Positions 15,609-62,916 of a DNA stretch of 64,000 nt are shown in pieces. The stretch covers positions 6,331-70,330 of the forward strand of contig MFXT01000019.1 of NCBI GenBank assembly GCA_001788955.1, read 5' to 3'. The translations under genes were made by a program, and so were the position numbers. Under the pieces are notes generated by a model. That model was not told the DNA's origin, searched no databases, and was given only the letters and a program-made list of their open reading frames with translations. The DNA is from Candidatus Peribacteria bacterium RIFCSPHIGHO2_02_FULL_49_16. Lineage in GTDB: Bacteria; Patescibacteriota; Gracilibacteria; Peribacterales; Peribacteraceae. Position 1 is the stretch's first letter, and every line of letters starts with the position of its first letter.

Positions 15609-15612
15609 CCAT

Positions 15613-17478: not shown

Positions 17479-17501
17479 ACGAATACCCTACACCCTACTA
17501 C

Positions 17502-18851: not shown

Positions 18852-18867
18852 AAGTCGAGATGAGCGA

Positions 18868-19584: not shown

Positions 19585-19630
19585 GAAAATACAATAAACT
19601 CTTCTTATCGTACCGCCGAATCGCTAGTAT

Positions 19631-22093: not shown

Positions 22094-22094
22094 A

Positions 22095-23528: not shown

Positions 23529-23559
23529 ATGAAATACGGATCAATCGGCAGTGTTCCAC

Positions 23560-24141
23560 TTACTGAAGTGGAATATTTAATATATTCGCACAGTCACGCA
23601 GATGTTTTTCTTGAAGTATCAGTGCATCGCAAATGACCGCGTCGGCTTTTTCGTACAATTCATCATCAGGATATCTGTCATGAATGTAATTATTATAAAA
23701 TGCTTCGTTTATTGTGGCTCTGATAAGCAGCATTTCATATTCCGTTTTCATAAGAATCACGCGCACGACTTCTTCGCGTATGTTCAAAATGAAACGGGCG
23801 ATTGGAGTAATCGGTTTCTTTCTCAAATCCAGAGTAGATATATGTATTTGTGCGGACAGCGTGCGCAGGGAAGCGGATTGTTTTGCATATTTCGCAAGTA
23901 ATGTTTGGCAGATGTCCGATAATGGTAAACAAGATGGCTCTTGAAGGCGGGCAACATAGTTTCTATTTTGGAAAATGAGAAATTCCGTAGACGAAAGTGC
24001 GCGCATCTTGGAGAGTCCGTTCGCATCGAAAGGCAGTACGATCTTTTTGATGTGAACATGTTCTCCGGATCGCACATTTTCACGCACTTCATCGAGCGTC
24101 TGCGTAGGAAACCGATCAAGTGTATCGTTTTGATCGAGCAT
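23560..24141 (-). CDS. Hypothetical protein
   Basis: 193-aa ORF divergent from dnaG. I recognise no motif. Confidence 0.5.
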   Translation of the reverse strand: MLDQNDTLDRFPTQTLDEVRENVRSGEHVHIKKIVLPFDANGLSKMRALSSTEFLIFQNRNYVARLQEPSCLPLSDICQTLLAKYAKQSASLRTLSAQIHISTLDLRKKPITPIARFILNIREEVVRVILMKTEYEMLLIRATINEAFYNNYIHDRYPDDELYEKADAVICDALILQEKHLRDCANILNIPLQ

Positions 24142-24196
24142 GAGTGCTATAATTACTTTTTAGGTTCATTTTGTCAATGTTCTACACTGTGTATCT

Positions 24197-25939
24197 ATGG
24201 ATCCCGTTTCCGACATCAAATCGCGTTTGCCTATAGAAGATCTTGTGCGACAGTATTGTCAACTCAAAAAATCCGGACGGAATTACAAGTGCTTGTGCCC
24301 TTTTCACACGGACAAAAATCCCAGCTTGCTTGTTTCCCCTGATAAGGGAATTGCGTATTGTTTCGCCTGTCAGACTGGCGGAGATATTTTTAGTTTTTAT
24401 CAGGCAATTGAAGGAGTGGATTTTCCACAGGCACTCAAGGAGCTTGCGGAACGAGTTGGTGTAGAGCTCGCGCGTGATACGGGACCGAAGCATTCAAAAG
24501 ACGAAAAAGAGAGAGTGCGGTCGTGCCTCATGGATGCCCTTGCGTTTTATCGCACAGAGCTGCAATCGGCAAAGGAAATACATGCGTATCTTGAAAAACG
24601 AGGCGTGGATGCAAAAGACATTGAAAAATATCAACTGGGCTTCGCGCCGAACGCAGAAAAAGAGTTATACGACGCGCTTCTGAAAAAAGGGCATAGTCGC
24701 ACTGAAATTCTTGCAGCAGGGCTTGGATTACAAAGCGATTTCAACGGTACCGTACGTGATCGATTCCGTCATCGTTTGATGTTTCCCATTCACGATCATC
24801 AAGGACGCTTGATCGGTTTTGGCGGACGCACAATGGGAAATGACAGCGCAAAGTACATGAATTCGCCGGATGGCATTCTCTATCACAAATCCGCAGTGTT
24901 CTTCGGTTTGCATACGGCAAAAGAGTCTGCCCGGGAAAAGGGAGAAATCATTCTTGTCGAAGGCTATTTTGATGTGCTTGCTTGCCGTCGGGTGGGGTTG
25001 ATGCACACGGTTGCCTGTTGCGGAACGGCGCTGACAGAGGAACATGCAAAGATTCTCAAGCGGTATGTTGATGAGGTTATACTCTGTCTCGATCAGGATA
25101 TCGCCGGAAAGAAAGCTTCTGAACGCGCCTTCTGTATGCTTGCGCAAGAAGGGTTACATGTGACGATCGCGACACTTTCCAAAAAAGATCCTGCGGATCT
25201 CGTACTCGAAGATGCAGAGTGTTTGAAAACGTGCATTCAAGCTCAACGTGTGCCGTTTATTGAACATGTCTGCAGAGAAATCGAGCACATGGATCTCAAA
25301 AATCCTCTGATCAAGCGGCGCATGCTGGAACGACTGATCACACTGTTACATGTTCTTCAGACAGCCGTGGAACGTCATCATTATCTTTCCCGTTGCGCGC
25401 GAGCGTTGGGGACAAGTGAATCGGCGCTGGAACAGGATTTCACTCGTTCACAAAAAAAACCACAGAACATGAATAGACAAGATACAGTGGGGCAAATACC
25501 AAGTGCTCAAAATTTCTCAAGTGCGGAGATTGCGCTGGGCATTTGTATGCTCCATCCGGGCATTCGCAAAGAATGTGTGAAATTGATGATGCCTGAAGAG
25601 GATTTTGTAAAAGCGCTTTATGAAATCGTATGTTCTGTTCCGCAAGATTCGCAGGAAATGAACATCGGAAATCTCCCGTTGCCGAAGGAGATGCATGAAC
25701 GATGTACCATTCTTCTACTCTTCTGTGAAGAACATGGATTCATAGAGTGGTCAGAGACGGTGGCTCGGCGGGAATTTCTTCAAAACTGTTTTCATGCCAA
25801 CAGATCTCTTATTCAGAAGAAACAAAAGCACATGACCGAATGCCTTCTTCAGGCCCGCCGCGAGGGAGAGAAGGAAGAGGAAAAAAAACTTCAAAATGAG
25901 TATCAGGAGCTTTTAATGACATCTAAAGGTCAGATATAA
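24197..25939 (+). CDS. dnaG: DNA primase
   Basis: Zinc finger [22 protein letters not shown], the RNA polymerase core, and Toprim motifs ([15 protein letters not shown]). Confidence 0.95.
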
Positions 25940-25985
25940 GGGTTGTTTGCCTTGGTTTCTTCTCTCCCGTACTCTTTGCATACGT

Positions 25986-27461
25986 ATGGCCTCTCATCCA
26001 CGAAAATTTATTGCGCAGCCAACGGAGGATGACTTAAAAAAATATCCGGATGCCGTTCGGCATTTGGTGAAAAAAGGACGTGAACAGCGCTATGTTACTC
26101 ATCAAGAGATCATCGCTGCGATCCCCAATGCAGAGGAACATGTTGATCTTCTTGACGATGTGTACTCGCTCTTTGTCGATTTGGGCATCGAAGTGATTGA
26201 TGTGAAAGATGCGCTCATTTGGCAAAAGAAGAATAAAAAAATGCTTGCCGTCATGGTGGAGCCGACGGAGGATTTGGCCAAAGAGGTTACGACGGATGAC
26301 ACCGAAGATGAGGATGAAGAAGATGAAGAAAAAGTCGCGGATAACTTGACGTCAGATATGAGTCAGGAAGACGACAGTCTTATGCAGGTTGTTGCAACGG
26401 CCGGCATCGCTATTGACGAAAAAGGCTTGAGCGATGAAGAGAAAAAAAAGCGACGTCGCGAACGGGAGGTCGATCTTCTGGAAATCAGCAATGACTCCGT
26501 GCGCATGTATCTTTCGGAAATCGGTCGCGTGCCGCTTATCGATGGACGAAAAGAAGTGGAACTCGCGCGACGAATTCGCAAGGGTGATGCATCTGCCAAG
26601 CAGCAACTGGCCGAAGCAAATCTTCGTCTCGTGGTGTCGATTGCCAAGAAGTACATCGGTCGCGGATTGTCGTTTCTCGATCTTATTCAGGAAGGAAATA
26701 TCGGACTCTTTCGTGCAGTGGAGAAATTTGATCCGGAACGCGGTTTTAAATTCTCCACATATGCGACGTGGTGGATTCGTCAAGCAATCACCCGTGCGAT
26801 TGCCGATCAGGCTCGCACAATCCGCATTCCTGTGCATATGGTGGAGACCATCAATAAACTCACGCATACGCAACGCCGCCTTGTTCAGGAGCTTGGCCGC
26901 GAACCAACTCTCGAAGAGCTTGCGGTCGAGATGGAGATGGATATGAAGAAAGTGCAGCATATTCAAAAGATCAGCCAGGATATTGTTTCACTCGAAGCCC
27001 CTGTCGGGTCCGAAGAGGACAGTAAACTGGGAGACTTTATCGAGGATGAAGAAGCCATCAATCCGTTTGAAGCGACGAATCGACAATTGAAGAAAGAGAA
27101 TGTTCATCAAATGCTCGAGTTCCTTACGCCTCGTGAGCGCAAGATCATTGAGATGCGATTTGGTTTGAAAGATGGCATCGGTCACACGCTCGAAGAGGTT
27201 GGTCAGGAATTCGGTGTCACTCGTGAACGCATCCGGCAAATTGAGGCAAAGGTTCTGCAAAAAATGCGCGATCATCCGCGTTCACTTACGATTCGAGAAT
27301 TCGGTTCACCGGGAAAGCGCGTGGGTTTTTCGCCAATGCAGCAATTTGCTCAAGGAAAACTGTGTCCCCAATGTCGAACAGGATCCATGATTGAGTTGAT
27401 AAAAAACGGACAGCGCATATTCAAATGCGATCATTGTGCATACGAATTGCAGCATATGTGA
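25986..27461 (+). CDS. rpoD: RNA polymerase sigma factor RpoD with an extra C-terminal zinc-ribbon tail
   Basis: Acidic region 1, region 2 ([17 protein letters not shown]), region 3, and region 4.2 ([18 protein letters not shown]). About 50 additional residues follow, containing CPQC...CDHC. The first ATG is at 25986. Confidence 0.95.
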
Positions 27462-28238
27462 TTAAGCCTGTATATCCGTGTTACGGAAGAGAGCCATGAT
27501 GGCATTCCACGCACGACGCATGATGCCTTCGCGTTGTTCTCTTTGTTCCGGGGACTCCTCTTTCAGTTCTTTCACATACTGCCCAACAGTGAGAATTTGT
27601 TCAATTTCTGCCGCATTCATACCTATTTTTTGTGCAAGTTCTTCAGAGGTTGGTTCATGACCGATTTTTTTCTTTAATTTTTTCTTCACATTCAAAATTC
27701 GCTGTACGCCTTTGAAAATTTCATCACGATAGTGTTTCCAAATAAGGAATTTCGGCACATAGAACATCATTTCTCCCTTCGCAAATCCTTCAAGAGACAG
27801 AGTGATTTGAATACGAGGTTGTCGATCGCCGCCGATAGATAATTTCTTCAGAGTAAAGGTGAGATGCGCATCTTCTCCGGAAAATGTCTCCAGTCCGTAT
27901 TTGATGTTATTGGATCGATAAATACTGCGGTGGCATCCGCGCAGGTATTGTTCTTGTGTGATCGGCAAATCAATCGTTTTGGTGTTCATCAAATAGCCAA
28001 ACATGACGAATGCAGACTGGAAAATAGCTTCGTCGATCTGTACCGCGGTCACATGTTCGATGTTTCTGTTGATTTTTTTGAACCTCGGAAAAACATATGT
28101 CATTTTGCACGAATTCTCATTAATCCCTTCGACGTTGGTTATCAGTAAATGATCTCCAAAAATATCCTGTCCTATTTCAAGCATTGTCAGTTCTTTCTGC
28201 TTTTCTGAAGAAATGATCTCTGGCTTTTGTGCATCCAT
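27462..28238 (-). CDS. Hypothetical protein with a sigma-70 region-3-like segment
   Basis: 258-aa ORF. Its C-terminal segment GHEPTSEELAQKIGMNAAEIEQIL resembles [23 protein letters not shown] in the adjacent RpoD. Confidence 0.55.
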   Translation of the reverse strand: MDAQKPEIISSEKQKELTMLEIGQDIFGDHLLITNVEGINENSCKMTYVFPRFKKINRNIEHVTAVQIDEAIFQSAFVMFGYLMNTKTIDLPITQEQYLRGCHRSIYRSNNIKYGLETFSGEDAHLTFTLKKLSIGGDRQPRIQITLSLEGFAKGEMMFYVPKFLIWKHYRDEIFKGVQRILNVKKKLKKKIGHEPTSEELAQKIGMNAAEIEQILTVGQYVKELKEESPEQREQREGIMRRAWNAIMALFRNTDIQA

Positions 28239-28262
28239 GATACAAAGAATTGTAAAGTATCA

Positions 28263-28290
28263 TTAACAAGAAAAGGATTTATTTTATAAT
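28263..28290 (+). promoter_or_regulatory. Candidate sigma70 promoter (TTAACA, 16-nt spacer, TATAAT) for the helicase gene
   Basis: The hexamers and spacer were counted by eye in the 94-nt intergenic region. Confidence 0.35.
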
Positions 28291-28332
28291 TTTTACAAGT
28301 TAAATCAACTCTTTTCCTCTACACTGCGAAGC

Positions 28333-31323
28333 ATGATACCGCACATTCCAGAGAGAAAGTCATCAAAAATGGCTTTTGCGGAAAGTTACGAACAATTAAA
28401 TATCGATCAAAAAGAAGCAGTCGATACGATTGAGGGTCCGGTGATGGTCATCGCGGGGCCGGGGACGGGAAAGACGCAAGTTGTTGCCTTGCGTGTTGCA
28501 AATATCCTCAAAAAAACACACATGCGTCCGAGTAATATTCTTTGTCTCACCTTTTCCACGAGCGGTGCAACTGCCATGCGCGATCGGCTGAAGAAGTATA
28601 TCGGTTCGGATGCGTATGGAGTAACAGTGAACACCATTCATGGATTTTGCAATGATCTCATTGCGCAGCATTCATTGCTCTTTGAAGAATGGTCTGCATT
28701 GGAACATGTAAGTGACATCGAGCGATATCGGATCATCAATACCATTATCAATACAATGCTTCCTGATATTGCACTCGTGAATCGCAAAAATCCGTATCGA
28801 AAGAGCGGAAACATTTTGCATCGCATCAGTCAGATCAAACGTGAAGGCATTGAACTGGAGAAGTTGCGACAGATTGCGGATTTCTACGAACAAGAGCTGT
28901 CACAAAAAAGTAAGGAAAGGACGAAGGCGCATGCGAGAAATATTCGCCAGGCACGCAAGTTCAAAGAGTTTGTCACGGTCTTTCAAAAATATCAGGAAGA
29001 GCTGGAGCGATCACAGCGCTATGACTACGAGGATATGATCCTCTATGTCATTCGTGCATTGGAGGAAGAAGAATGGCTGCTTGCCGGTCTTCAGGAGCGC
29101 TATCACTACATTCTCATTGACGAATTTCAGGATACGAATGGCGCGCAAAATCGCATTGTGGAATTACTTACCACATATCCTCACCTTGATCACGAACCCA
29201 ATCTCTGTGTTGTCGGTGATGATGATCAGGCGATTTATCGCTTTCAGGGGGCTAACCTGCAAAATATTCTCGCATTCCATGCACGTTTTCCCACGTCGAA
29301 AAAAGTCGTATTGAACATGAGTTACCGCTGTCTCCAGCCGATCCTCGATGCTGCCGGCTCGCTTATTGAGCACAATACGGAGCGTCTCGTTGGAAAAATC
29401 CCCGGTCTTCAAAAAAACCTCATTTCCGCTTCACCCGCCCCCTGCCCCCTTCCTCCTACAACCACCTTCTCCCCCTCCGATGCTCTTGAACCGTGGCTCA
29501 TTGCCGAATTGGTGCAAGAGCGAATACACATGGGAGTGTCACCATCCGAAATAGCGATTCTTACTCAAACGAATGCGGAACTTTTGCCGATCTATGAAGT
29601 GCTTCGTGTGCAAAATATTCCCGTTGATATGCGCGGAAAGCTTGATCTTCTTGCACAACCGCAGATCAAGCAGCTGATCTGCATCTTGAGAGCAATTGCA
29701 AAACCGAATGAGTGCGGGCTTCTTGCCGCAGCGCTTGCCTGTGAATGTTTTGATTGTCATCCGGCGGATCTCGGCAAACTTTTTGCGCATAAAAAAGAGA
29801 AGAATATTTCATTAATGAATGTCCTTCTCTCTCTTGAAGGAGGGGAGTGGAAATTGCAAATCAATCAATATGATGCGATGATTTCTGCTCGCGATATTCT
29901 TTTGGATATTCATTATAAACTGTCGTCTCGCACGATCGTCGACACTCTGGAACATGTCCTGAAAGAATGTTCCTTAATCTTCCCCTCCCTTGAGGGAGGG
30001 GATCGAGGGGAGGGGGATACAATTGATCCTTTAACTTTTGCCCCCCTTCAGTCGTTCTTTAACCGCATCAAGTATCGTGCCTATGAGCAGCCAACCTATG
30101 ACATCAACACACTTATCGAAGATCTCGAGTACTACGAAAATCCGGAGTACGGCGATGTCCGCCTCACCTATGAAATTCCGCATCTGATCGAAGATGGCGT
30201 ACAACTCATCACCGCACACCAAAGCAAGGGATTGGAGTTTCATACCGTGATCCTTACGAATATGCGTGAAGGACAGTGGGATGGTCGTCGCCATCCGGAA
30301 TCTTTCTCCATTCCTGAAGATTTGCTCTTTGGATGGGAAAAGGATCAGAAGACATATGAAAAGAATCAGGACGAGCGACGTGTTGCTTACGTTGCCATGA
30401 CGCGTGCAAAAGAGGAACTTCTCTTTGTCGTCAGTAAAACGCAGACGCGCGGCGAAAAGAAGAAAGACGTGTCTCCATCGCGATTTATTGCAGAGGCGAA
30501 TGTGATAAGCGAAGAAGAGCGTACGCCAAAAAATGCGGAACAGTCGTCAACGTTATTGCATACTCCGGAGAGACATATTGATGAAGAGTTTGCCGCGTTC
30601 TTACGTGCCCGGCTGAAAAAATTTCATTTGTCCGTTACGGCGCTTAACCACTTCCTCGACGATCCGCAGAAATTTTTGGAGATTGATCTTCTGCAAATGC
30701 CGAAGAGTAAGACACCAAGCCTTGTATACGGAAATGCCGTGCACAACGCTTTGCAAGCGTGGGGGATGCAAAAATGTAAAATGCACAATGGAGAATTCAC
30801 CATGAATGAATTTCTGGATACATTCAGAAAATATCTCAATGAACGTGAAGTCTTAACAAAAAAAGATCGAGAGAATTTGATCCATCATGGAGAAGAGAAT
30901 CTGCCGCGGTATTACGAAGAAGTTCTTGCAGTTTCACATCCGCACATCCACAGCGTTGAGCGGGGGATTTCCACTCATCTTCCAATGTCCATTCCCATCA
31001 AAGGCCTCATCGACCGTATTGATCTTATTCATCCGTCATCAAGTGATGCTGTGATCATCGACTATAAAACCGGCATCCCAAAAACCGAAAAACAAATTCG
31101 TGACGGTGACTACTTCCGTCAACTCGTTTTCTATGCACTCCTTATCGAACATGCTGATACTGCTCTGCAGCCGAATGTCTTTATTCTCGATTTTATCGGA
31201 GAAGGGGATTATGCCCCCATTCAGCGAAAATTTACAGTTTCCGAAGCGGAAAAAGAAGAAGTGCGCACGATGATTCGGGCAGTATGGGATAAAGTACAGA
31301 ATCTGGATTTTACGCCAGTGTGA
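28333..31323 (+). CDS. UvrD/PcrA-family ATP-dependent DNA helicase with a C-terminal PD-(D/E)XK nuclease domain
   Basis: Motifs AGPGTGKT, ILIDEFQDTNGAQ, VVGDDDQAIYRFQGA, TAHQSKGLEFHTV, VAYVAMTRAKEEL. The C-terminus has GLIDRIDLI...IIDYKTG...QLVFYALL (RecB/Cas4-type nuclease). The start could instead be ATG 28369. Confidence 0.93.
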   Translation: MIPHIPERKSSKMAFAESYEQLNIDQKEAVDTIEGPVMVIAGPGTGKTQVVALRVANILKKTHMRPSNILCLTFSTSGATAMRDRLKKYIGSDAYGVTVNTIHGFCNDLIAQHSLLFEEWSALEHVSDIERYRIINTIINTMLPDIALVNRKNPYRKSGNILHRISQIKREGIELEKLRQIADFYEQELSQKSKERTKAHARNIRQARKFKEFVTVFQKYQEELERSQRYDYEDMILYVIRALEEEEWLLAGLQERYHYILIDEFQDTNGAQNRIVELLTTYPHLDHEPNLCVVGDDDQAIYRFQGANLQNILAFHARFPTSKKVVLNMSYRCLQPILDAAGSLIEHNTERLVGKIPGLQKNLISASPAPCPLPPTTTFSPSDALEPWLIAELVQERIHMGVSPSEIAILTQTNAELLPIYEVLRVQNIPVDMRGKLDLLAQPQIKQLICILRAIAKPNECGLLAAALACECFDCHPADLGKLFAHKKEKNISLMNVLLSLEGGEWKLQINQYDAMISARDILLDIHYKLSSRTIVDTLEHVLKECSLIFPSLEGGDRGEGDTIDPLTFAPLQSFFNRIKYRAYEQPTYDINTLIEDLEYYENPEYGDVRLTYEIPHLIEDGVQLITAHQSKGLEFHTVILTNMREGQWDGRRHPESFSIPEDLLFGWEKDQKTYEKNQDERRVAYVAMTRAKEELLFVVSKTQTRGEKKKDVSPSRFIAEANVISEEERTPKNAEQSSTLLHTPERHIDEEFAAFLRARLKKFHLSVTALNHFLDDPQKFLEIDLLQMPKSKTPSLVYGNAVHNALQAWGMQKCKMHNGEFTMNEFLDTFRKYLNEREVLTKKDRENLIHHGEENLPRYYEEVLAVSHPHIHSVERGISTHLPMSIPIKGLIDRIDLIHPSSSDAVIIDYKTGIPKTEKQIRDGDYFRQLVFYALLIEHADTALQPNVFILDFIGEGDYAPIQRKFTVSEAEKEEVRTMIRAVWDKVQNLDFTPV
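29825..29847 (+). repeat. Possible decayed or partial copy of the mini-element (TTCTCTCTCTTGAAGGAGGGGAG)
   Basis: About 18 of 23 positions match the 5' part of copy B. It is read in the same frame (SLEGGEW versus SLEGGDRGEG). The C-rich arm is degraded and the third arm is absent. Confidence 0.4.
29979..30016 (+). repeat. G/C-rich hairpin and G-tract mini-element, copy B (inside the helicase gene, sense orientation)
   Basis: Sequence CTTCCCCTCCCTTGAGGGAGGGGATCGAGGGGAGGGGG. It contains a perfect 8-bp hairpin CCCCTCCC-TTGA-GGGAGGGG followed by a second G-rich arm. Confidence 0.85.
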
Positions 31324-31339
31324 AGACTCTTTATTGAGC

Positions 31340-32155
31340 TTATGCGTATTCCTTCAATGCTTCACGGATGCGCTGATGAATGTCCGGTAATTCAATTCCT
31401 TGTGTGCGGAGTTTTTCTGAACTCAATAAACAATTCGATCTGCCGGTTTTTGTCACACTGCCAAGCAGATTTGCATCCAATCGCTCAACGTTGTGCGACG
31501 GATCCACGATTTTCTTGTAGAGCATCATGATTTCATAGGGAGAGATGCTTCCCGGATTGACAATGTTGTAGATTCCCGTTATTCGCTTTTCGATGAGTTT
31601 TTTTGCCGCTGCAAAAAGGTCCGGCGCATACGTCATGGAGTTTTGTACGTCGATGACGCGTTCGTATTTGAGCACTTTGGTGATGAAATTCCTATCATGC
31701 GGCTTGCCTTCAAAAGGCATGCGTGGTCGCAGGATCAATAGGGGAAACTCTTTAAGGATCTGCTCGCTCCATATCTTGGATCGGGAATAGAAACTCTCGA
31801 AGAAATTTGGCGGATCATTTTCGAGGTACCCCTTTCCGTTATTATCGCCATGATATATGCAACCGGAACTCATGTGGACAAAATAGCAACCTGCTTTCTG
31901 ACAGAGCTCCAAAAGAACGAGCGGTCCTGTGACATTTGAGCGCAACGTATCCTCTCGATGATCTTCGCACCAATCAATATTCGGCCTGCCGGTCTTGGCT
32001 GCACAGTTGATGATTATATCCGGCTGTATTCTGTCTATTTCTTTGCCGATGGCTTTAGTATCTGCGATATCCACATCACTTGCAAAACTTCCTGGAAAGA
32101 TGCGAAAGAAGTTTCCCCCCATGTAGCCTTTGGCGCCGAAAATCAAAATATTCAT
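31340..32155 (-). CDS. NAD(P)-dependent sugar-nucleotide epimerase/reductase (RmlD / NRS-ER-like)
   Basis: 271 aa with an N-terminal Rossmann motif ILIFGAKGYMGG. The C-terminal blocks NFITKVLKYERVIDVQNSMT and GIYNIVNPGSISPYEI resemble 4-keto-6-deoxyhexose 3,5-epimerase/4-reductases. Confidence 0.8.
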   Translation of the reverse strand: MNILIFGAKGYMGGNFFRIFPGSFASDVDIADTKAIGKEIDRIQPDIIINCAAKTGRPNIDWCEDHREDTLRSNVTGPLVLLELCQKAGCYFVHMSSGCIYHGDNNGKGYLENDPPNFFESFYSRSKIWSEQILKEFPLLILRPRMPFEGKPHDRNFITKVLKYERVIDVQNSMTYAPDLFAAAKKLIEKRITGIYNIVNPGSISPYEIMMLYKKIVDPSHNVERLDANLLGSVTKTGRSNCLLSSEKLRTQGIELPDIHQRIREALKEYA

Positions 32156-32263
32156 GAAATGTACAAAAAAGAAATATTCCTTGCTTCATTATCAATGAGT
32201 TGCCGGCCGAAGCCAAGAGAAGAAGGGTGGTCAATTCTCACTTTTTTTCGGTATACTTTTTTT

Positions 32264-34507
32264 ATGACCAGAAGCAAACGTCGCAGGCGATCACGCAGGA
32301 GGCGCCGAGGATCGCGCTCACTTGGGCTCGAAGCCTCGACGATTCGTGCCATTCGGGGAATGGTGAATGTCGCTGTCGGCATTCTGTTGTTTTTGGTTTT
32401 GCAGAGCGAGGCGGGAATGCTCGGGATCACATTTCAGAAATTTATCGTATTCTTTGGTGGAAAGTGGTCCATTTTGCTGCCGATTTTCTTCATTGTTTCC
32501 GGTGTGCTCAAGTGGATTCTTCCGGAAAAAGGTTTGGAACGAAAACAGAGCCTCGGCCTTGCATTTTGCCTCTTTGCGTTTTTGGGGCTCATGCATATCG
32601 GTGCGCCGCTCGAAGACGTCGGAGTACGCCGTGATGAGCTCGGCGGCGCCATCGGTTTTCTGATGAGCATTCCCTTCATCTTGTTTTTAAGTCGACCTGT
32701 CGGCTACACCGTGCTCTCGTGTCTCTTTCTTGTGGGATTGTTTCTGACATTCGAACCGAATGTATCGACGGTAATTTCTCTCTTTGCACGCGCGGCTTCG
32801 CCGCATAAAAAAACACGCGATCACTTATCGCGCCGCATCGTTGATGAAGAAGATGAGGAAGGTGCCGAGGAGTGTGATGAAGAAGAGATGACTGAAGAAG
32901 ATGATGATGTCGACGATGCAGAATTGAACATTGTGCGTCCGGTCTTTGCGCAGAAAGTGGTAAAATCGCAGGCGCAAAAGAAAATAAAAGAGGAGGCGCA
33001 GAAGAATAAGAAAAAAATTCCTGGGGGGCTTCAGATGAAAGACACACGCTACGAAGAATGGACGTTCCCGTCCTACGAATTGCTCGAAACCTCACGGAGC
33101 GAGTTGAAGATCGATGATGAACAACTTAAAAATCAAGCGGCGTTGATCGAAGAAAAACTTCTTGAGTTCGGAATCGAGGTCAAAGTGCGCGATGCGCGTC
33201 CCGGCCCGACGGTCACGCAGTTTACGCTCCAGCCGGCAGAAGGCGTAAAATTGAGCCGCATTGCATCACTGAAAGATGATCTTGCGCTTGCGCTTGCGGC
33301 GCAAAGCCTTCGCATCGAAGCGCCGATTCCCGGAAAATCTCTCGTCGGTATTGAAATGCCGAACAGTGAACGTGCATATGTGCATCTGCGTGAAATTATG
33401 GAGAGTGAAGCGTTTGCGCAAAATCTTTCTTCCGTCACATTGCCGCTTGGACGCGACGTGTCCGGCGACGCGATTGTGGCGGGACTTGATAGCATGCCCC
33501 ACATTCTCATTGCGGGTGCGACGAATTCCGGAAAATCCGTGTGTATGAATACGTTTATTACGTCGCTTCTGTACCAGAATGCGCCGCATGAATTGAAATT
33601 CATTCTCATTGATCCCAAGCGCGTGGAACTCATGCCCTATGACGGTGTTCCTCACCTCCTGACGCCGGTGATTACCGACGCCGATAAAGCGCTGCAGGCG
33701 ATGCGATGGGCGGTTGCCGAAATGAGCAGACGTCTTCAGCGGTTTTCGGAAACCGGAGCGCGCAATATTGATGAGTACAACGAGAAACAACAAAATGAAG
33801 AACAGCTTATTCCCCGCATTGTCATTATTATTGATGAGCTGGCTGATCTCATGATGCGGCAATACCGCCGTGATACGGAGATGATGATTACGCGCATTGC
33901 GCAAATGGCGCGTGCTGTGGGTATTCACCTTATCATTGCCACGCAGAGGCCGAGTGTGGATGTCATCACCGGTCTCATTAAGGCGAATATGCCAACGCGC
34001 ATTTCATTCCGCACGGTGAGTTCCGTCGACTCGAGAACGATTCTTGATTCGGTGGGAGCAGAAGATCTTCTTGGTGCGGGAGACATGCTCTATATGACGG
34101 CAACCACGCCAAAGCCCGTGCGTATTCAAGGTATATACGTTTCCACAAAAGAAGTGGCACGTGTGATCAATGCGGTGAAAATCGCGGGCGGAGGAAAAAT
34201 GAGTGAACAAATCCGCATGTCCAACGAAGGAGAAGACGACGAAGGACAAGCTGGAGGTCTTCCACCCGGCGCGTTTCAGCAGATCGATCTGGAAGCCGAT
34301 GATAACGGCGGTGACGAGCTTTTCTTCGAAGCCGTGCGTGTTGTGCAGGGAGCGGGAAAAGCTTCGGCAAGTCTGCTTCAACGCCAACTCAAAGTGGGTT
34401 ACGCGCGCGCCGCGCGGCTTCTCGATATCATGGAAGAAAAAGGACTCATCGGTCCCGCAGATGGAGCGAAAGCGCGAAAAGTGTATATCAGTGTGGGAGA
34501 GACGTAG
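32264..34507 (+). CDS. ftsK: DNA translocase FtsK/SpoIIIE
   Basis: Arg-rich N-terminus and 4-5 TM helices. The motor domain has Walker A GATNSGKS and Walker B IIIDELADLM. A gamma winged-helix domain is present (LLQRQLKVGYARAARLLDIMEEKG). The listed ORF starts at 31958, but that extension overlaps the opposite-strand gene, so ATG 32264 is used. Confidence 0.95.
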   Translation: MTRSKRRRRSRRRRRGSRSLGLEASTIRAIRGMVNVAVGILLFLVLQSEAGMLGITFQKFIVFFGGKWSILLPIFFIVSGVLKWILPEKGLERKQSLGLAFCLFAFLGLMHIGAPLEDVGVRRDELGGAIGFLMSIPFILFLSRPVGYTVLSCLFLVGLFLTFEPNVSTVISLFARAASPHKKTRDHLSRRIVDEEDEEGAEECDEEEMTEEDDDVDDAELNIVRPVFAQKVVKSQAQKKIKEEAQKNKKKIPGGLQMKDTRYEEWTFPSYELLETSRSELKIDDEQLKNQAALIEEKLLEFGIEVKVRDARPGPTVTQFTLQPAEGVKLSRIASLKDDLALALAAQSLRIEAPIPGKSLVGIEMPNSERAYVHLREIMESEAFAQNLSSVTLPLGRDVSGDAIVAGLDSMPHILIAGATNSGKSVCMNTFITSLLYQNAPHELKFILIDPKRVELMPYDGVPHLLTPVITDADKALQAMRWAVAEMSRRLQRFSETGARNIDEYNEKQQNEEQLIPRIVIIIDELADLMMRQYRRDTEMMITRIAQMARAVGIHLIIATQRPSVDVITGLIKANMPTRISFRTVSSVDSRTILDSVGAEDLLGAGDMLYMTATTPKPVRIQGIYVSTKEVARVINAVKIAGGGKMSEQIRMSNEGEDDEGQAGGLPPGAFQQIDLEADDNGGDELFFEAVRVVQGAGKASASLLQRQLKVGYARAARLLDIMEEKGLIGPADGAKARKVYISVGET

Positions 34508-35324
34508 CCGTGGTTATCCACTTTTTCCATTCTTTTCGGATGTTGTTCATTTGATCTGCATCAAATCCATATCCTTGCAGCGGAAAAGCGCGAAGAACCT
34601 CTTCCGTATTGTCGGCAATGACGGTACTGATCTGCTTTCGCCACGTGAAAAGATAATGATGGATGACGGGAAAGCGCTTGGCGTATTCTGTAAGAATGTT
34701 GATATGTGCAGGGACAATCAAATGCCCCATGGCGCGAAGCCGGGCGCGCAGTTCCGTGTGCGGCATCTTTTGGTGCTTTTCCCATGCGCGTATGGGGGTT
34801 CGCATGTAATCTGTATGCTCGATGGCCTCAAAACTTTCCTGTAATTTCGTTGCATCTGTGGCTCCCGAACGATGGTCGACTTTTCCATTGACGATCGTAT
34901 CCGTAACGGTATGGAGTTTGATTCGCAGAACGGCATCATGAACGATTTCATCGATGATACGATGGATTGCTTCGATTTCCCGTAATTCCAGATCGTGCGT
35001 TTTGGTGCCGTATGGATGATCTCCGACACATGCTTCACCCCAATCGTGACAGAGCGCCGTGAGAAGAAGCTTCTCCTGTTCCTCTGGAGAGTAACTATCG
35101 GGATCGGCTCGAAGAGCAAATGTCAAAAAAGCGCGCGTACGGTTATACACATGCCACAGATGTTGCAGATTGCATACATCCGGTCCGAGTAATTCCTTCC
35201 ACTCCTCACAAGTGACGTTCTCCGGTTTATATTGTCCGAAACGCACCTCCTGCTTCAATTTCTCGCCGAAACGGCTTTTAGAGAATATGCTGTGGATGTC
35301 TGCATAAGAAACGATACCTTTCAT
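34488..35324 (-). CDS. HD-domain metal-dependent phosphohydrolase (hypothetical)
   Basis: 278 aa with an HD signature at ALCHDWGE and further His/Asp residues downstream. Confidence 0.65.
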   Translation of the reverse strand: MKGIVSYADIHSIFSKSRFGEKLKQEVRFGQYKPENVTCEEWKELLGPDVCNLQHLWHVYNRTRAFLTFALRADPDSYSPEEQEKLLLTALCHDWGEACVGDHPYGTKTHDLELREIEAIHRIIDEIVHDAVLRIKLHTVTDTIVNGKVDHRSGATDATKLQESFEAIEHTDYMRTPIRAWEKHQKMPHTELRARLRAMGHLIVPAHINILTEYAKRFPVIHHYLFTWRKQISTVIADNTEEVLRAFPLQGYGFDADQMNNIRKEWKKWITTATSLPH

Positions 35325-35413
35325 GATAAAAATATCTCATGATCATGATCACTTTCCAAGTATTCAATATCTGAATTCGTGTTACAATACTTTTCTTGAT
35401 TTCATCAACCGCA

Positions 35414-38020
35414 ATGCCTACTCCTCTTCTTGCCACGCCTTTCTCCAAGCTGCGTCTTCTGGATTATAGCCCTCCGGAATATTTCACTCCCGAAACGCAT
35501 CTCGTTTTCCATATTGTCGACCGAACGCGCGTTGAAGTGAATGTTGCGCTTTTTGTACAGCGCAATGGTACATCAATGCCTTCTGCGTCGTTCGTGCTTA
35601 ACTGCCACGAGAGCGTGCAGATCGCCAATGTGTTCATCAATGGCGAGGAACTCGATCCCGATCAATATAGAAAAGAAAAAGATATGCTGACGATTTTGCA
35701 ATCTTTTCCTGCTGATTTTCGTATCAAGATTGATTGTGTTCTCAACCCCGAAGCGAATAAATCCGGAAAAGGATTATATGTATCCGGAGGAAATCTTGTG
35801 ACGCAGTGCGAACCGCACGGCTTCCAGTGGATCGCGCCGTCCATTGATCGACCGGATAACATGGGTGTTTTTACCACAACGCTTATTGCTGACAAAAACA
35901 GATTTCCAATACTTCTTTCCAATGGCAATAGTACGGAGGAACAAGAGCTTCCCGGAAACAAATACTCCGTGACCTTTCATGATCCTTTTCCTAAACCATC
36001 GTATCTGTTCGCGCTCTCGGCGGGGGATTTCGATTCGATGGAGGACGTGTTTACGACAATGAGCGGCAAAGAGGTTCGATTAAAGATTTTTACCGAAAAA
36101 GGAGAGATCAATCAGTGCCGTCATGCGATGGAGAGCCTGAAAAAATCCATGAAGTGGGATGAAGAGCGCTTTTGCTTGGAATGTGATTTGAACGAATTCA
36201 AGATCGTCGTGTGTCATGACTTTAATTCCGGTGCGATGGAGAATAAGGGCTTAAATATCTTCAATTCCTCCTGTGCGTATGCCGACCCAAAGACGGCGAC
36301 AGACAGCGACTTTGAGAACGTAGAACGCGTCATTGCGCATGAGTATTTCCATAACTGGACAGGAGATCGTGTGACGTGCCGCGACTGGTTCCAATTGACG
36401 TTGAAGGAAGGATTGACGGTGTTTCGCGATCAGGAATTTACCTGCGATACGCATTCGCGCGCACTGAAGCGCATCGACGATGCGCATATCATCAAAGTCG
36501 CGCAATTTTCGGAGGATGGTGGCCCGAATGCCCACCCGATCCGCCCGCAGGAGGTGGAAACGATCGATAACTTCTATACGACAACTGTCTATGACAAAGG
36601 GGCGGAAGTCATTCGTATGATTTTCACGATGATTGGCAAAGATGTTTTTTGTAAAGGGCTCAATCTGTATTTGTCCCGACATGACGGGCAGGCAGTCACG
36701 ACTGATGAGTTTGTCGATGCCATGCAAGAGGTTTCCGGTCTTGATCTCACGCAGTTTCGAAACACATGGTACAGCCAGAAGGGAACGCCGACAGTCCATG
36801 TCCAAGAAGAATATGATGCTGATCTGAAGACGTACAAGCTTCACATTGAACAGAAGCCGGCGCACGAAGGCCAGAAACCTTTTCATTTTCCTTTTATGAT
36901 GGGACTTCTGTCACATGATGGGAAAGAGATTCCCATTCAAAATAATCTTCTGCAGATCCGTGAACCAAAGCACACATTCACGTTCACCGATATTCCCTTA
37001 AAGCCGACACTTTCGGCATTGCGCAATTTTTCGGCGCCGGTGAGGCTGAAATTGGAACAATCGTCGGAGGAATTGCGACGTCTCATGATGCATGATAGTG
37101 ATCTTTATAATCGTTACGATGCTGCACAGCGATACGGAAAGATTCTTCTTCATTTACTTATTGCAGATACATCTTCCCTGAATACGGATAATCTTGATGC
37201 CTACGGCGCAATGCTCGATTCCGTGGACACAGACCCCGATTTTGCCGCACGCATTGTTCTTCTTCCGTCTCTACGCGAAATCGTGCAGGAAATGGATGTG
37301 TACGATTATGACAGTGCATATAACGCGCGCGAATTTCTTATGCGTGCCATTGCGGAAAAATATGAAGATCGCCTTGTTGCGCTGTACGAGAAATATCACA
37401 GTATCGATCCCTATAAGCTTGATCCAAAAGACATTGCCGCGCGTCGTATCAAGAATGTCTGTCTTGCCTATTTAAGCAAAATAACCGGAAAACACACCAA
37501 CCTCCTTATGAAACAGTTCCATGATGCCACGAATATGACTGACCAAGAGAACGCGTTCAGGCTCCTGTGCAACGAAAAAGGGCCGGAGCGTGATGAAGCC
37601 ATCGCGTCTTTTTACGATCAGTGGAAGCACGACAAGCTCGTCTTCTGTAAATGGGTGGAGGCGCAGTCCGTCTCGAAGCGCATGGATATCATCGAACGCA
37701 TGGAGGAAATGGAGAAGCTTCCGGAATTCGATACGCGTAATCCCAATAATATCCGATCGCTGTCGGCCTGCTTTGCCGCCATCAATAAAGTGCATTTTCA
37801 TGATATTTCTGGCGACGGCTACGTCTTTGTTGCCGATCACGTTATCGACATCGATTCCTTTAATCCGCAAATGGCCGGGGGGCTCGTAAAGCGTTTTGAT
37901 GAATATAAGAAGATGGATTGCGTTCGTCAGGAACTTATGAAGAAAGAGCTGCTGCGAATTGAGAAAAAAACGAAGACGACGAATGTACGGGAGATCGTGG
38001 GAAATATTGTAGGGGAATAA
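35414..38020 (+). CDS. pepN: Aminopeptidase N (M1 family)
   Basis: Motifs GAMENKGLNIFN, the zinc site HEYFHNWTGDRVT...LKEGLTVF, and full-length PepN-like architecture. Confidence 0.95.
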   Translation: MPTPLLATPFSKLRLLDYSPPEYFTPETHLVFHIVDRTRVEVNVALFVQRNGTSMPSASFVLNCHESVQIANVFINGEELDPDQYRKEKDMLTILQSFPADFRIKIDCVLNPEANKSGKGLYVSGGNLVTQCEPHGFQWIAPSIDRPDNMGVFTTTLIADKNRFPILLSNGNSTEEQELPGNKYSVTFHDPFPKPSYLFALSAGDFDSMEDVFTTMSGKEVRLKIFTEKGEINQCRHAMESLKKSMKWDEERFCLECDLNEFKIVVCHDFNSGAMENKGLNIFNSSCAYADPKTATDSDFENVERVIAHEYFHNWTGDRVTCRDWFQLTLKEGLTVFRDQEFTCDTHSRALKRIDDAHIIKVAQFSEDGGPNAHPIRPQEVETIDNFYTTTVYDKGAEVIRMIFTMIGKDVFCKGLNLYLSRHDGQAVTTDEFVDAMQEVSGLDLTQFRNTWYSQKGTPTVHVQEEYDADLKTYKLHIEQKPAHEGQKPFHFPFMMGLLSHDGKEIPIQNNLLQIREPKHTFTFTDIPLKPTLSALRNFSAPVRLKLEQSSEELRRLMMHDSDLYNRYDAAQRYGKILLHLLIADTSSLNTDNLDAYGAMLDSVDTDPDFAARIVLLPSLREIVQEMDVYDYDSAYNAREFLMRAIAEKYEDRLVALYEKYHSIDPYKLDPKDIAARRIKNVCLAYLSKITGKHTNLLMKQFHDATNMTDQENAFRLLCNEKGPERDEAIASFYDQWKHDKLVFCKWVEAQSVSKRMDIIERMEEMEKLPEFDTRNPNNIRSLSACFAAINKVHFHDISGDGYVFVADHVIDIDSFNPQMAGGLVKRFDEYKKMDCVRQELMKKELLRIEKKTKTTNVREIVGNIVGE

Positions 38021-60196: not shown

Positions 60197-61564
60197 ATGG
60201 AAAATACAAGAATTACATATGGCAAAGAATTCCGGTTATCGCATCGACTGGAAGTCGTGCGATGTGACAAGTACACGTTGATCTATCTTCCGCAGGAAAA
60301 AGTATGGCGAAAACAGGATGCCGATGACCAGAGAAAGTTTTTGATGGATGAACAGGAAAAACAGGAATTTCTGGATATTGCAAAAGAACCCGGAGTCAAA
60401 GTGTATTACCTGCCGGGGAAAACAGTAACCGAAGAGGAGTTCTTTGGCGAAAATGGTGACAATGGAAAGGAAAAGAAGAAAATGTTCCCGCGATTTTTTA
60501 TCGGATTGGATGGATTTGTAAACTGCTCCACGCATTTTCAACCTCATGATGGAAAAAAAGGACCGCGTGCAAATTTTAACCATCATCATGGCATTCGGGA
60601 GAGTACAAAAAGCACATGCAAGCAGGTTCATGCCGCGCTTGTACCCGGTGGCCCCATCGATAAACACTTCAGGACGAATGATGACCAGTTCATTGTCAAC
60701 CTTGCTCTGAATCATCTTGACGAGGATGGCGAAGCGAGCATTTGGGAATTCGTGTATCGCGAGAAGATTCATGAACTCGACGTGTCCGGCGAGCGTCGTG
60801 CCTATCGCAGTCGTGTTATTCAACTTCTTCTCGATGACATCGGCGATATTGATGAAGAAGGAGGAGTATCTCCGCTTCCTCTCATTGAGACAGAGGAGAT
60901 TAAAGCACTCTTTTGTCATGTGCAGGAAGTAAAAAGTACATCCATAGCATGTACATATACGGAACGATTGAATAATATTTTTTACAACATCAATCGTGCG
61001 ATTGAGAAGACTCTGCGCGGTGAAGAACGCGATCGCGAAAATGTAGAAGAGAGTTTTCGTTTTTTGGGACGAGGCAAAGGTTTTACTGTTGTTACAGATA
61101 CGCAAAAGGAGGCACGTAACGCTTTACGAGATATGGGTGTGGAAGCAGCCGTATTACACAAAGGACAACTGGAAAATGGAAGTCACGTTTTTACCATTCA
61201 ACGGTTTGATATGGGTAGCCCTTTCCCTTTGGAAAAAATCATCGACATGCTGAATCGTATGGAACGTGTTCCAAAACACATGCGTCACAAACCCCCGCAA
61301 GAACTCATTACATACATTCAAAAACCGGACGCCGTTCTTGTTCCAGAAAAAGAAGAGGATCAATGGGGAGGTGACAACAAAGTGAGCGGCTCACCTCGTG
61401 AGAACGGAACCTGGATGGATCCAAACGCCATACGAGAAAGTATTACTTGTTATCTTGCGCAATTGGAATCTGAACAAAAAAAAGAAGAAATTTCCAATCA
61501 AAACACGGTGGAGGATGTAGAAAGCGGCAAAGCGCTTCTTGATGATGACACAGGGGATGAATAG
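60197..61564 (+). CDS. Hypothetical protein (455 aa, orphan)
   Basis: A long ORF 15 nt downstream of prfA on the same strand. It is acidic and I recognise no motif. The opposite-strand 289-aa ORF looks like low-complexity shadow. Confidence 0.55.
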   Translation: MENTRITYGKEFRLSHRLEVVRCDKYTLIYLPQEKVWRKQDADDQRKFLMDEQEKQEFLDIAKEPGVKVYYLPGKTVTEEEFFGENGDNGKEKKKMFPRFFIGLDGFVNCSTHFQPHDGKKGPRANFNHHHGIRESTKSTCKQVHAALVPGGPIDKHFRTNDDQFIVNLALNHLDEDGEASIWEFVYREKIHELDVSGERRAYRSRVIQLLLDDIGDIDEEGGVSPLPLIETEEIKALFCHVQEVKSTSIACTYTERLNNIFYNINRAIEKTLRGEERDRENVEESFRFLGRGKGFTVVTDTQKEARNALRDMGVEAAVLHKGQLENGSHVFTIQRFDMGSPFPLEKIIDMLNRMERVPKHMRHKPPQELITYIQKPDAVLVPEKEEDQWGGDNKVSGSPRENGTWMDPNAIRESITCYLAQLESEQKKEEISNQNTVEDVESGKALLDDDTGDE

Positions 61565-62916
61565 CGCAAATCTTTCATCATGTCTTTTCGTTTCTGAATC
61601 ATCTCCTCTTTACCAATGTCTCTGCGAAATCGCACGGGGCCTTGCACTTGTTCACAGAGCTTTTGTGCAATAGCTTCAGCTTGGGCGATCGAATCACCGA
61701 TACCGACGATGCCGGCTGTACGGGAGGAACCGAGTATGAGGTTGCCATTGAGGTCTTCAGAAATGTCGCCGTAGAATAGGTTGTAGCGATCAGGAGCTGA
61801 ATGAGAGAATGGAAATTCTACAATATCCCCCTTCTGATCTTTAGAAACAGGATAACTTTCCGGAACGATATATTTGCATACGGTGGCTTTGCGAGAAAAG
61901 TGCACCAGATCTTCGGTGAGTTCTCCGGTGACAATGCCCAAACAGATGGCCGCAAAATCTGATGTGAGAAGAGGGAGAATATTAAGTGCTTCAGGATCTC
62001 CGAACCGTGCGTTGTATTCAATGAGCCGGATGCCGTCGCGAACGGCGATAAATCCTCCATAAAGAATACCTTTGTAGGGTATGCCGAATTCTCGAAGAAG
62101 CGCATGTGCAACCAACTGATTGATTTCCTGCGCTCTTTTCAAATCGTTCTCTGTTAAAAACGGCAAGGAGTGATTCGTATCGCTGTATGTCCCCATGCCA
62201 CCGGTATTCGGTCCCGTGTCATTTTCGTATGCGCGTTTGTGATCCTGTACGACCGGCATATGAACGACGTCTGGTCCGCTGACAAACGAGAGAAGGCTGA
62301 ATTCCACACCGATGAGTTTTTCTTCAAGCACAACACGCCCGCATTCCTCGATGCATTCCAGAGCATACGATACGCCATGATCAATCGTTTCCAAATGTTC
62401 ACCGGAGAGTTTTACTCCCTTTCCTCCTTTTAAGGCGTCATACTTGACCACGTATTCTCCGTGCAGTTCATTCTCAATATACGAGCGGATTTCTTGTTCA
62501 AGCCCCCTCCCCCTACCCCCTCCCTCAAGGGAGGGGAGAACACGAAACTTCGGCGATGCATCAATGTCATGCTTCTTGAGCAGATTCCGGGTGAAACCTT
62601 TGCTGGACTCGATTTTTGCCAATTCTTTTTTTGGGGCAACGGAAGCGATGCCGATTGTTTCCAATGCATCCGCAAGACCGCCGCCGATTGCATCATCGGG
62701 AGCGATGAAAGCAAAATCCGGCTGTGTTTTTTTTGCAATGGCGCAGACCTGTTCAAAATTCATGATATTCATGACATGCTGCTCGCGTGCAAGCGCACGA
62801 ATGCCGGGATTTGCCGTAGGACAGAGTGAAATGATTTCCATGTTCTGCGGACTTCTGGCAAACGCATCCGCAATCGCATGTCCCCGCGCCGAGGAAGAAA
62901 CTAAAAGAACGATCAT
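61498..62916 (-). CDS. purD: Phosphoribosylamine--glycine ligase carrying an in-frame mini-element insertion
   Basis: ATP-grasp PurD blocks: VVKYDALKGGKGVKLS, GPNTGGMGTYS, IEYNARFGDPE. The segment PSLEGGGRGRG is extra. A tail of about 40 aa lies beyond the usual C-terminus. The gene overlaps purF by 4 nt. Confidence 0.93.
   Translation of the reverse strand: MIVLLVSSSARGHAIADAFARSPQNMEIISLCPTANPGIRALAREQHVMNIMNFEQVCAIAKKTQPDFAFIAPDDAIGGGLADALETIGIASVAPKKELAKIESSKGFTRNLLKKHDIDASPKFRVLPSLEGGGRGRGLEQEIRSYIENELHGEYVVKYDALKGGKGVKLSGEHLETIDHGVSYALECIEECGRVVLEEKLIGVEFSLLSFVSGPDVVHMPVVQDHKRAYENDTGPNTGGMGTYSDTNHSLPFLTENDLKRAQEINQLVAHALLREFGIPYKGILYGGFIAVRDGIRLIEYNARFGDPEALNILPLLTSDFAAICLGIVTGELTEDLVHFSRKATVCKYIVPESYPVSKDQKGDIVEFPFSHSAPDRYNLFYGDISEDLNGNLILGSSRTAGIVGIGDSIAQAEAIAQKLCEQVQGPVRFRRDIGKEEMIQKRKDMMKDLRYSSPVSSSRSALPLSTSSTVF
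62503..62539 (-). repeat. G/C-rich hairpin and G-tract mini-element, copy C (inside purD, sense orientation)
   Basis: Sense-strand sequence TCTCCCCTCCCTTGAGGGAGGGGGTAGGGGGAGGGGG. It has the same hairpin CCCCTCCC-TTGA-GGGAGGGG as copy B. Confidence 0.85.

Follow-up and report, generated by a model that had tools for sequence, protein, structure and literature searches.

The window analysed here is a stretch of 64,000 nt from the genome of Candidatus Peribacteria bacterium RIFCSPHIGHO2_02_FULL_49_16 (contig MFXT01000019.1). Its purD gene, which encodes phosphoribosylamine-glycine ligase, carries a G/C-rich, tripartite element of 37 nt at positions 62503-62539 of the minus strand, which we call copy C; two further copies, A and B, lie in other genes of the same window. 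We consider it likely that copy C is a dispersed DNA repeat of the intrastrand-triplex class which entered purD as DNA and is tolerated there as a translated surface loop. It is the nucleotide sequence of the element, and not its peptide, that is conserved.

Copy C and its relatives in the window

On the sense strand of purD, copy C (TCTCCCCTCCCTTGAGGGAGGGGGTAGGGGGAGGGGG) reads TCT-CCCCTCCC-TTGA-GGGAGGGG-GTAG-GGGGAGGGGG and was located by an exact match for which 0 occurrences are expected in shuffled sequence. The pyrimidine arm, arm 1 (62529-62536), pairs in both DNA and RNA folds with its Watson-Crick partner, the purine arm 2 (62517-62524), and the TTGA between them (loop 1, 62525-62528) forms the hairpin loop. 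Loop 2, GTAG (62513-62516), is one base shorter than the ATCGA of copy B and the ATAGA of copy A. It is followed by arm 3 (62503-62512), a mirror repeat of arm 2 and a potential reverse-Hoogsteen third strand. All these parts lie on the minus strand. Arms 2 and 3 together hold four G-runs, and when the purine part is read as GGGAGGGGG-TA-GGGGGAGGG it is a perfect 9+9 mirror repeat.

The host gene (61498-62916, minus strand) encodes a protein of 472 aa that is identified as PurD by the Pfam domains GARS_N, GARS_A and GARS_C and by PDB PurDs matched at E ~1e-48. The nearest named homologues come from Candidatus Peregrinibacteria/Peribacteria of the candidate phyla radiation (CPR). Copy C is in frame and adds LPSLEGGGRGRG (L-P-S-L-E-G-G-G-R-G-R-G, 12 residues) between KFRV and LEQEIRSYIE, at PurD residues 128-139; the peptide region that spans the insert is VLPSLEGGGRGRGLEQ. 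A first-pass annotation, made from the sequence alone, had placed the segment between these two stretches, and the exact, in-frame match of the 37-mer confirms this. It had also stated that other PurDs have no such segment in this linker. That holds for every aligned PDB PurD, all of which show a gap of 10-11 residues at the insert, with the caveat that in Peribacteria the linker is length-variable: at this site many PurD orthologues have an unrelated stretch ~9 residues longer and others are short. In an AlphaFold model built with 73 aligned sequences (mean predicted local distance difference test, pLDDT, 89.6), the insert lies between a strand (residues 124-128) and a helix (139-150). Residues 131-140 have an average pLDDT of 62, with values below 50 at 133-135, and by this model copy C is translated as a low-confidence loop at the boundary of the PurD N and B domains. 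An Rfam scan of the window returned at threshold three tRNAs only and nothing at copy C. At its 3' end purD overlaps a convergent open reading frame (ORF) of 455 codons (60197-61564) by 67 nt (61498-61564); residues 456-472, the last 17 of PurD, have a pLDDT below 50 in the model, and the PurD of the sister species described below is 18 residues shorter.

A sequence-independent finder of our own for class II triplex motifs, whose sole requirements are a pyrimidine arm, a purine arm complementary to it and a second purine arm that mirrors the first (Y-R-R order), returned exactly copies A, B and C from the window. Twenty shuffles gave 0 hits, so that the motif is more frequent than chance (3 in 64 kb vs 0), and the core patterns of the element likewise have 0 matches expected by chance in the window. 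Copy A, CCCCTCC-ATAA-GGGAGGGG-ATAGA-GGGGAGGGGG (5728-5761, minus strand), lies in rpiB (5468-5995). Copy B, CCCCTCCC-TTGA-GGGAGGGG-ATCGA-GGGGAGGGGG (29982-30016, plus strand), lies in a gene for a UvrD/PD-(D/E)XK helicase (28333-31323). Both are in frame on the sense strand of their gene, with the peptides SPLHKGGDRGEG and PSLEGGDRGEG, respectively, and all three copies sit inside ORFs with Pfam domains on both sides. The 20-nt hairpin CCCCTCCC-TTGA-GGGAGGGG of copy C is, as the earlier reading had it, identical to that of copy B (29982-30001), with 0 such identities expected by chance. Loop 2 is nearly the same in A and B and differs in C, which fits two insertion waves or two source copies. 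TCT or CTT precedes all three copies, which share no other flank, and none of them is paired with another as an inverted doublet. The stretch TCTCTCTCTTGAAGGAGGGG at 29826-29845, which differs from the hairpin of the element by four transitions, was considered as a further, decayed copy and rejected because the encoded LLSLEGGEW is a native helicase segment that reads LLELERGEW in orthologues. The window has its cumulative GC skew minimum at 17000-19700, with genes mostly on the minus strand over 1-19016 and mostly on the plus strand over 19631-38020; this region could be a replication origin or merely a divergent gene block.

Judged by its bases, the element belongs structurally to the G/C-rich class II intrastrand-triplex motifs. 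The proposal of a mini-element in the first-pass annotation was sound, but its three-arm design had not been recognised as that of the intrastrand-triplex class named BoxC, PIT (potential intrastrand triplex; Hoyne and Maher 2000 and 2002, cited in Holder et al. 2015, PMC4666352) or TM, with the copies of E. coli called TMECO. The class II order of a 5' pyrimidine arm, a purine arm and a 3' reverse-Hoogsteen purine arm on one strand is represented by CCCCTCCC, GGGAGGGG and GGGGAGGGGG. By the class II definition (ITxF, Holder et al. 2015), stems measure 6-15 nt with at most one mismatch and loops 1-6 nt. In copy C the stems are 8 nt long and the loops 4 nt each (alternatively, 9-nt stems and a 2-nt loop), copy B has 8-nt stems with loops of 4 and 5 nt, and copy A stems of 7-8 nt with loops of 4-5 and 5 nt. 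The third domain is a mirror repeat that would place G.G:C and A.A:T triads in register, 9+9 nt in copy C and 8-nt mirrors in A and B, and a perfect mirror of arms 2 and 3 is the requirement for a purine-motif intramolecular triplex.

Folding was calculated with ViennaRNA, which models the hairpin and, for RNA, the G-quadruplex (G4) only. As DNA, each copy gives the hairpin of arms 1 and 2 at about -9 to -10 kcal/mol. The folding z-scores of -1.2 to -2.9 are modest and constitute weak evidence because shuffled C-run/G-run sequence also folds well. The minimum-energy folds of the RNAs reach -17 to -24 kcal/mol, often with arm 3 in place of arm 2 as the partner of arm 1, and copy C RNA with G4 allowed adopts a hairpin plus G4 at -36.2 kcal/mol. 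A single strand could thus fold as an 8-9 bp hairpin of arms 1 and 2, on which, in DNA only, arm 3 would dock as the third strand; a G4 formed from arms 2 and 3 would be an alternative fold of the single strand.

Nucleotide versus peptide conservation

When the three copies are compared in pairs, each pair has 0-1 differences over the 26 arm positions and 3-6 over the 9 loop positions (Fisher p = 0.044, 0.0024 and 0.0003). A one-base indel in loop 1 (A vs B) shifts the frame of arm 1, and a one-base indel in loop 2 (C vs B) shifts that of arm 3 and turns GEG into RGRG, so that the same bases encode different residues. Two AGG and three GGG codons are used in copy C, and among the window genes these are the least frequent codons for Arg (3%) and Gly (15%), respectively. 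The earlier suggestion of conservation at the level of nucleotides or structure is borne out by these three results and by the codon identities described next. One detail of it had to be corrected: the differences between C and B had been assigned to the third arm, which is GGGGAGGGGG in both, and it is the spacer that differs (GTAG vs ATCGA). Comparison of substitution patterns, to which the earlier reading had looked for compensatory changes, placed the changes in loops and not in arms; no compensatory stem changes were seen among the three copies because their arms are invariant.

The purD gene of a second, sister species (GCA_002772605.1; L126/L127) has 75% protein and 72.4% nucleotide identity to the window purD and contains the same 42 bases (GTT CTC...GGG CTT) across copy C, with zero changes. 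In this two-species comparison, the only 12-codon windows of the whole gene at 100% identity are those at copy C. At conserved residues the same codon is kept in 14/14 cases within copy C vs 150/322 (47%) elsewhere in purD, and the joint probability of 14 identical codons, calculated from the per-residue rates, is 5.9e-7. There is constraint or homogenisation at the synonymous sites of copy C. For an element that stayed unchanged while purD diverged by 28%, the candidate causes are selection on nucleic-acid structure, repeated short-patch conversion with other copies as donors, or parallel insertion at a hot spot. Changes in the sequence do occur, as a strain variant shows (L129:10393-10414, protein P0001): a G-to-A change in arm 2 converts GGGAGGGG into GGGAAGGG, with loss of the central C-G pair in the stem and replacement of Gly by Arg, and it is the sole codon difference from the window purD.

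G/C homopolymer-rich sequence is error-prone in sequencing, and the element could on that account be an assembly or sequencing artefact at a low-complexity run. We regard this as next to inconceivable: the identical PurD protein occurs on 12 contigs from independent JGI, NCBI (GCA_001787485.1) and ENA assemblies and samples, the same 42 bases were recovered in a different species from a different site, and the frame is intact in all copies.

A protein-level explanation would be that a Gly-rich PSLEGGxRGxG loop has been selected for flexibility or binding in several proteins. The three copies are indeed all in sense orientation and in the same frame through arm 2, giving P-[SL]-x-x-G-G-x-R-G-x-G, and the peptide of the sister PurD is identical. 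However, the host proteins are unrelated, the rarest codons are used and are identical at synonymous sites, and frame shifts alter the peptide while the bases stay. In addition, relatives of the element at the helicase site are read in another frame (L251, SPPPMGEGMGVGE) or in the opposite orientation (L250, antisense, PPPPPTPPPCGGEGRGG), which also supports conservation at the nucleotide level, and the same DNA is mostly non-coding in other bacteria. This explanation is already largely refuted and we consider it very improbable.

Alternatively, the element could be a selected nucleic-acid signal within the coding sequence, with the peptide as a by-product. In one version the mRNA hairpin or G4, together with Shine-Dalgarno-like GGAGG runs, would slow the ribosome and help the N-terminal domain to fold; in another the signal would act on DNA in replication or recombination. 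Such a function would agree with the synonymous sites of copy C frozen between two species and with the energy of the RNA hairpin (-22 to -24 kcal/mol; -36 with G4 allowed). It would also agree with the position of the sites in turns or in linkers between domains (at the N/B boundary of PurD, in the CobB linker, at the SMC hinge, between conserved ValRS motifs) and with the other GC-rich hairpins or elements found at the same sites in Peribacteria (L252 in purD; L250 and L251 in the helicase gene). On the other hand, most orthologues have no hairpin there (118/119 RpiB, the sister helicase, the PurDs with short linkers), and elements occur in both orientations, so that an effect of GGAGG cannot be general. 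The strain variant breaks the central pair yet persists, the motif is mainly extragenic in other bacteria, and the z-scores are modest against shuffles. On balance a selected signal appears unlikely to us.

Gain, reuse of sites and spread

The insert of copy A is absent from 118/119 closest rpiB orthologues, including that of the sister genome GCA_002772605.1. The empty site of the sister reads GTG CTC AAA-GAA GAT GCC, with the junction between AAA and GAA, and the window rpiB has 33 bases more. The end of arm 3 overlaps native Glu-Gly/Asp codons of rpiB, and the insert appears as a 10-residue gap vs PDB 1o1x. For copy B, a syntenic helicase orthologue (71% identical, from the same sample as the sister purD) has an empty site with TCT at the junction and is exactly 12 codons shorter. 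About 58 kb of DNA from the sister species contain the purD copy only. Copies A and B were gained in the lineage of the window after the species split, and copy C is common to both species; precise loss of A and B in the sister would be the less parsimonious alternative.

Protein linkers are used repeatedly. At exactly the helicase linker of copy B, two orthologues have longer 'palindromic' triplex motifs in which one side holds the C-rich arms and the other the G-rich arms, with a strong third arm, GGGGGTGGGGG, on opposite strands. In L251 (2225-2271), CCCCTCCCCC-GAT-GGGGGAGGGG-AT-GGGGGTGGGGG lies on the sense strand, and in L250 (2494-2534) an element of the same type lies on the opposite strand; their peptides are those given above. 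At the linker of copy C, the purD orthologue P0081 (L252:10001-11347) has a different perfect GC hairpin, GCGGCCC-TTC-GGGCCGC, that encodes ..ESGPSGRG.. and could either be unrelated or be what is left of a remodelled copy C; this linker (LTRHESGPSGRG) matches copy C at 18/36 bases in a hand count over aligned codons. Reuse of linkers could mean either that few places tolerate insertions or that these are preferred targets.

Other genomes were scanned with the pattern CCCCTCC-N3-8-GGAGGGG-N2-8-GGGGAGGGG, one genome per species, and metagenomes with a narrower pattern. The motif is widespread: the genome matches listed fall in many phyla and include Acetobacteraceae, Inquilinus, Sphingomonadales, Deltaproteobacteria, Nitrospirota, Chloroflexi, Bacteroidota, Planctomycetota, Helicobacter and Parcubacteria, and the metagenome matches listed lie on contigs of 25-69% GC. 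On viral or proviral contigs of IMG/VR (L254-L319; complete listing), the Y-R-R order was found in 56 stretches and the mirror-image order of the arms in 4, a 14:1 bias for the C-rich arm first. A third arm with its A shifted out of register was found in 11 stretches, 5 of which are the same loci. These counts indicate that polarity and register are specific and that the motif does not simply result from base composition. Most of its copies in other bacteria are extragenic: among the matches listed, 34 of 426 strand tests fell inside long open frames, where random positions would give roughly 30% per strand. In intergenic gaps it is often present as inverted doublets whose members lie 30-120 nt apart. 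On soil metagenome contigs of ~55-57% GC (L144, L151, L152, L164, L188, L201, L204, L214, L216, L239 and L246), one subfamily is always followed by CGCAGCTACG and occurs in inverted pairs ~100 nt apart, a REPIN-like layout with a CTAC box.

In-frame copies also exist in distant phyla. They were found in ValRS of two Alphaproteobacteria (L115, L108) between the LGWPD and HFPNSLL motifs, in the SMC hinge of Ca. Magnetobacterium (L120), in the interdomain linker of CobB from a metagenome-assembled genome (MAG) of Thermodesulfovibrionia (L042; Pfam domains on both sides) and, in antisense orientation, in a Dus-like ORF of a Parcubacteria MAG (L107:6281-6316). A Planctomycetota cytochrome protein (L092) likewise has the motif in frame, and such motifs sometimes come as two in tandem, in both orientations, between conserved motifs or domains. 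In Helicobacter sp. 15-1451 (L093, 39% GC), a DNA methyltransferase-like ORF of 1032 codons has, by eye, several motif-derived peptides (PSPTPPARGG, HPLTPSAKGGG and SPCGRGWGG) and an apparent inserted endonuclease-like segment.

The inverted doublets of other bacteria raise the possibility that the element is a miniature element of the REP/REPIN kind, moved in trans by a single-strand transposase (Y1, RAYT or IS200-type) that would recognise the hairpin and insert it beside a short target such as TCT. The hairpin core is REP-like, TCT or CTT precedes all three window copies and TCT stands at the empty helicase junction of the sister. The following CGCAGCTACG of the soil subfamily and the gain of A and B after the species split point the same way. 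Yet no transposase-like ORF was noticed among the window ORFs or the gene calls of related Peribacteria, in which no dedicated profile scan was made, and doublets of Nitrosovibrio (L086) flank ordinary metabolic genes with no transposase between them. The window copies are single, a GTAG/CTAC flank is not shared by A, B and C, and insert sizes and junctions vary between copies. The relatives in E. coli were not found to be associated with mobile elements (PMC4666352), and the candidates for GGGAGGGG in the REP literature are unrelated sequences. Mobilisation of this kind seems to us improbable.

If copy C is, as we favour, a dispersed repeat that inserted into purD as DNA, it would be translated as a Gly/Arg-rich loop which the enzyme tolerates, and it would survive because the net insertion is a multiple of three, the frame is stop-free and the site is a strand-helix turn at the surface. 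The window is ~95% coding, so that only in-frame, stop-free copies in permissive loops would persist, a filter that would account for both the intragenic location and the repeated use of linkers. Our best guess for the spread of copies is a replication- or repair-tied process triggered by the structure itself, in which stalling of the fork would be followed by template switching or by short-patch gene conversion from another copy. Since no mobilising enzyme was found and junctions and net sizes differ, such copying is favoured over a cut-and-paste transposase.

Several observations weigh against the tolerated DNA repeat. Neither a mobilising enzyme nor an insertion mechanism was identified in the window ORFs and related loci that were read, for which no exhaustive profile scan was made. 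The insert junctions of copies A and B show no clear target-site duplications, their net inserts of 33 nt and 36 nt do not represent a fixed-length cassette, and the net insertion size at the purD site cannot be fixed owing to the length-variable linker. The copies examined in this genome are three only, and no Peribacteria loci are among the matches listed in the genome and metagenome pattern scans. Had copy C been merely tolerated junk, ~10 substitutions would be expected since the species split and 0 were seen, which implies selection, refreshment by gene conversion or two insertions at the same site. Moreover, the orientation and the frame, taken relative to arm 2, are identical in A, B and C, an agreement of ~4% by chance when five of the six frames are taken as open, and this could point to a filter on peptide or orientation. 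Finally, the TMECO triplex was demonstrated in vitro and none was detected in vivo, and TMECO had no promoter or terminator activity (PMC4666352).

A wider interpretation, possible in our view though doubtful, is that triplex/hairpin/G4 elements of ~35 nt act across bacteria as in-frame loop inserters that settle repeatedly, in distant phyla, at the same interdomain linkers of essential genes and then come under purifying selection on their structure. Its hosts would be PurD, RpiB and the helicase in Peribacteria, Dus in Parcubacteria, ValRS in Alphaproteobacteria, and SMC and CobB in Nitrospirota. If true, the element would be a DNA or mRNA signal inside coding sequence, for example a programmed pause at a domain boundary or a replication/recombination signal, and not tolerated junk.

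Significance and comparison with known systems

Knowledge of triplex motifs of the BoxC/PIT/TM type goes back to the 1990s; they abound in hundreds of genomes and were described as intergenic. We know of no agreed function or mode of spread for them. The structural class is thus already known, whereas arms of different sequence, a CPR host, an in-frame intragenic site and frozen synonymous sites are unreported; the novelty lies in an in-frame position within a coding gene, in synonymous sites that are constrained and in the recurrence of such elements at the same protein linkers. At this locus the triplex-motif design occurs inside essential genes of a CPR bacterium with a streamlined genome and is translated there as a loop, and new copies have arisen since a recent species split. 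It is a natural test bed in which presence/absence alleles, junctions and synonymous rates can separate selfish spread from selected structure. The precedent of the Rickettsia palindromic elements is extended, in that palindromic repeats can remodel protein loops in other phyla too, and repeatedly at the same linkers. For annotation, it follows that peptides such as PSLEGGDRGEG or PLPLxGEG inside proteins derive from a DNA repeat.

The E. coli BoxC/PIT/TMECO consensus is CCCTCNCCC N3-6 GGGNGAGGG N3 GGGNGAGGG, i.e. a 9-nt C-rich stem, a loop of 3-6 nt, a G-rich stem, a 3-nt loop and another G-rich stem, with stems better conserved than loops (PMC4666352). E. coli K-12 has 23 TMECO copies which are 'always located intergenically' and are tied to local genomic instability (PMC4666352). 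The motif described here agrees with TMECO in the order and polarity of its parts (from the 5' end, a C-rich arm, 3-6 nt of loop, a G-rich arm, a short loop and a mirror-image G-rich arm), in its size of ~35-37 nt and in that its arms are far better conserved than its loops. It too occurs in many near-identical dispersed copies, some of them palindromic doublets, that are absent from close relatives. In contrast to TMECO, the arms are CCCCTCCC/GGGAGGGG and not CCCTCNCCC/GGGNGAGGG, the strict TMECO consensus having 0 matches in the window, and the host is a CPR bacterium. While the copies of E. coli K-12 are intergenic, all three window copies are in frame inside genes, and while TMECO loci are reported to be unusually unstable, copy C is frozen at synonymous sites between species.

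In Methanomicrobiaceae, repetitive potential G-quadruplex sequences with an adjacent C-tract, all intergenic, exist in vitro in an equilibrium of hairpin, antiparallel triplex and G4 (PMC8044849). The window element shares with them the three-arm G/G/C design, four G-runs, interruptions by single A residues, dispersal and a variable central loop. The differences are that the Methanomicrobiaceae sequences have archaeal hosts, are intergenic and run in mirror-image order, the C-tract coming last on the 3' side (class I).

Similar to the REP/REPIN-RAYT systems (PMC2817692, PMC3116915), the element is a short GC-rich hairpin of high copy number which in other bacteria forms inverted intergenic doublets. 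Different from them, the window copies have neither a conserved GTAG/CTAC flank nor a doublet arrangement, possess a third arm and are intragenic. The candidates for GGGAGGGG retrieved from the REP/RAYT literature were rejected as unrelated Pseudomonas REPs.

The Rickettsia palindromic elements (PMC10969869) are also in-frame palindromic repeats in unrelated housekeeping genes which are translated at tolerant sites, and for them as for the window copies there are orthologues in related species without the insert. They are about 100-150 bp long, have a conserved peptide, are confined to Rickettsia and have no triplex or G-run design (PMC10969869), whereas the window element measures 34-37 nt, is read in different frames and has a peptide that differs between copies. 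By analogy, these elements, 3-4 times longer and kept as peptides, appear to be the closest functional counterpart of a repeat that enters genes in frame and is translated as a loop.

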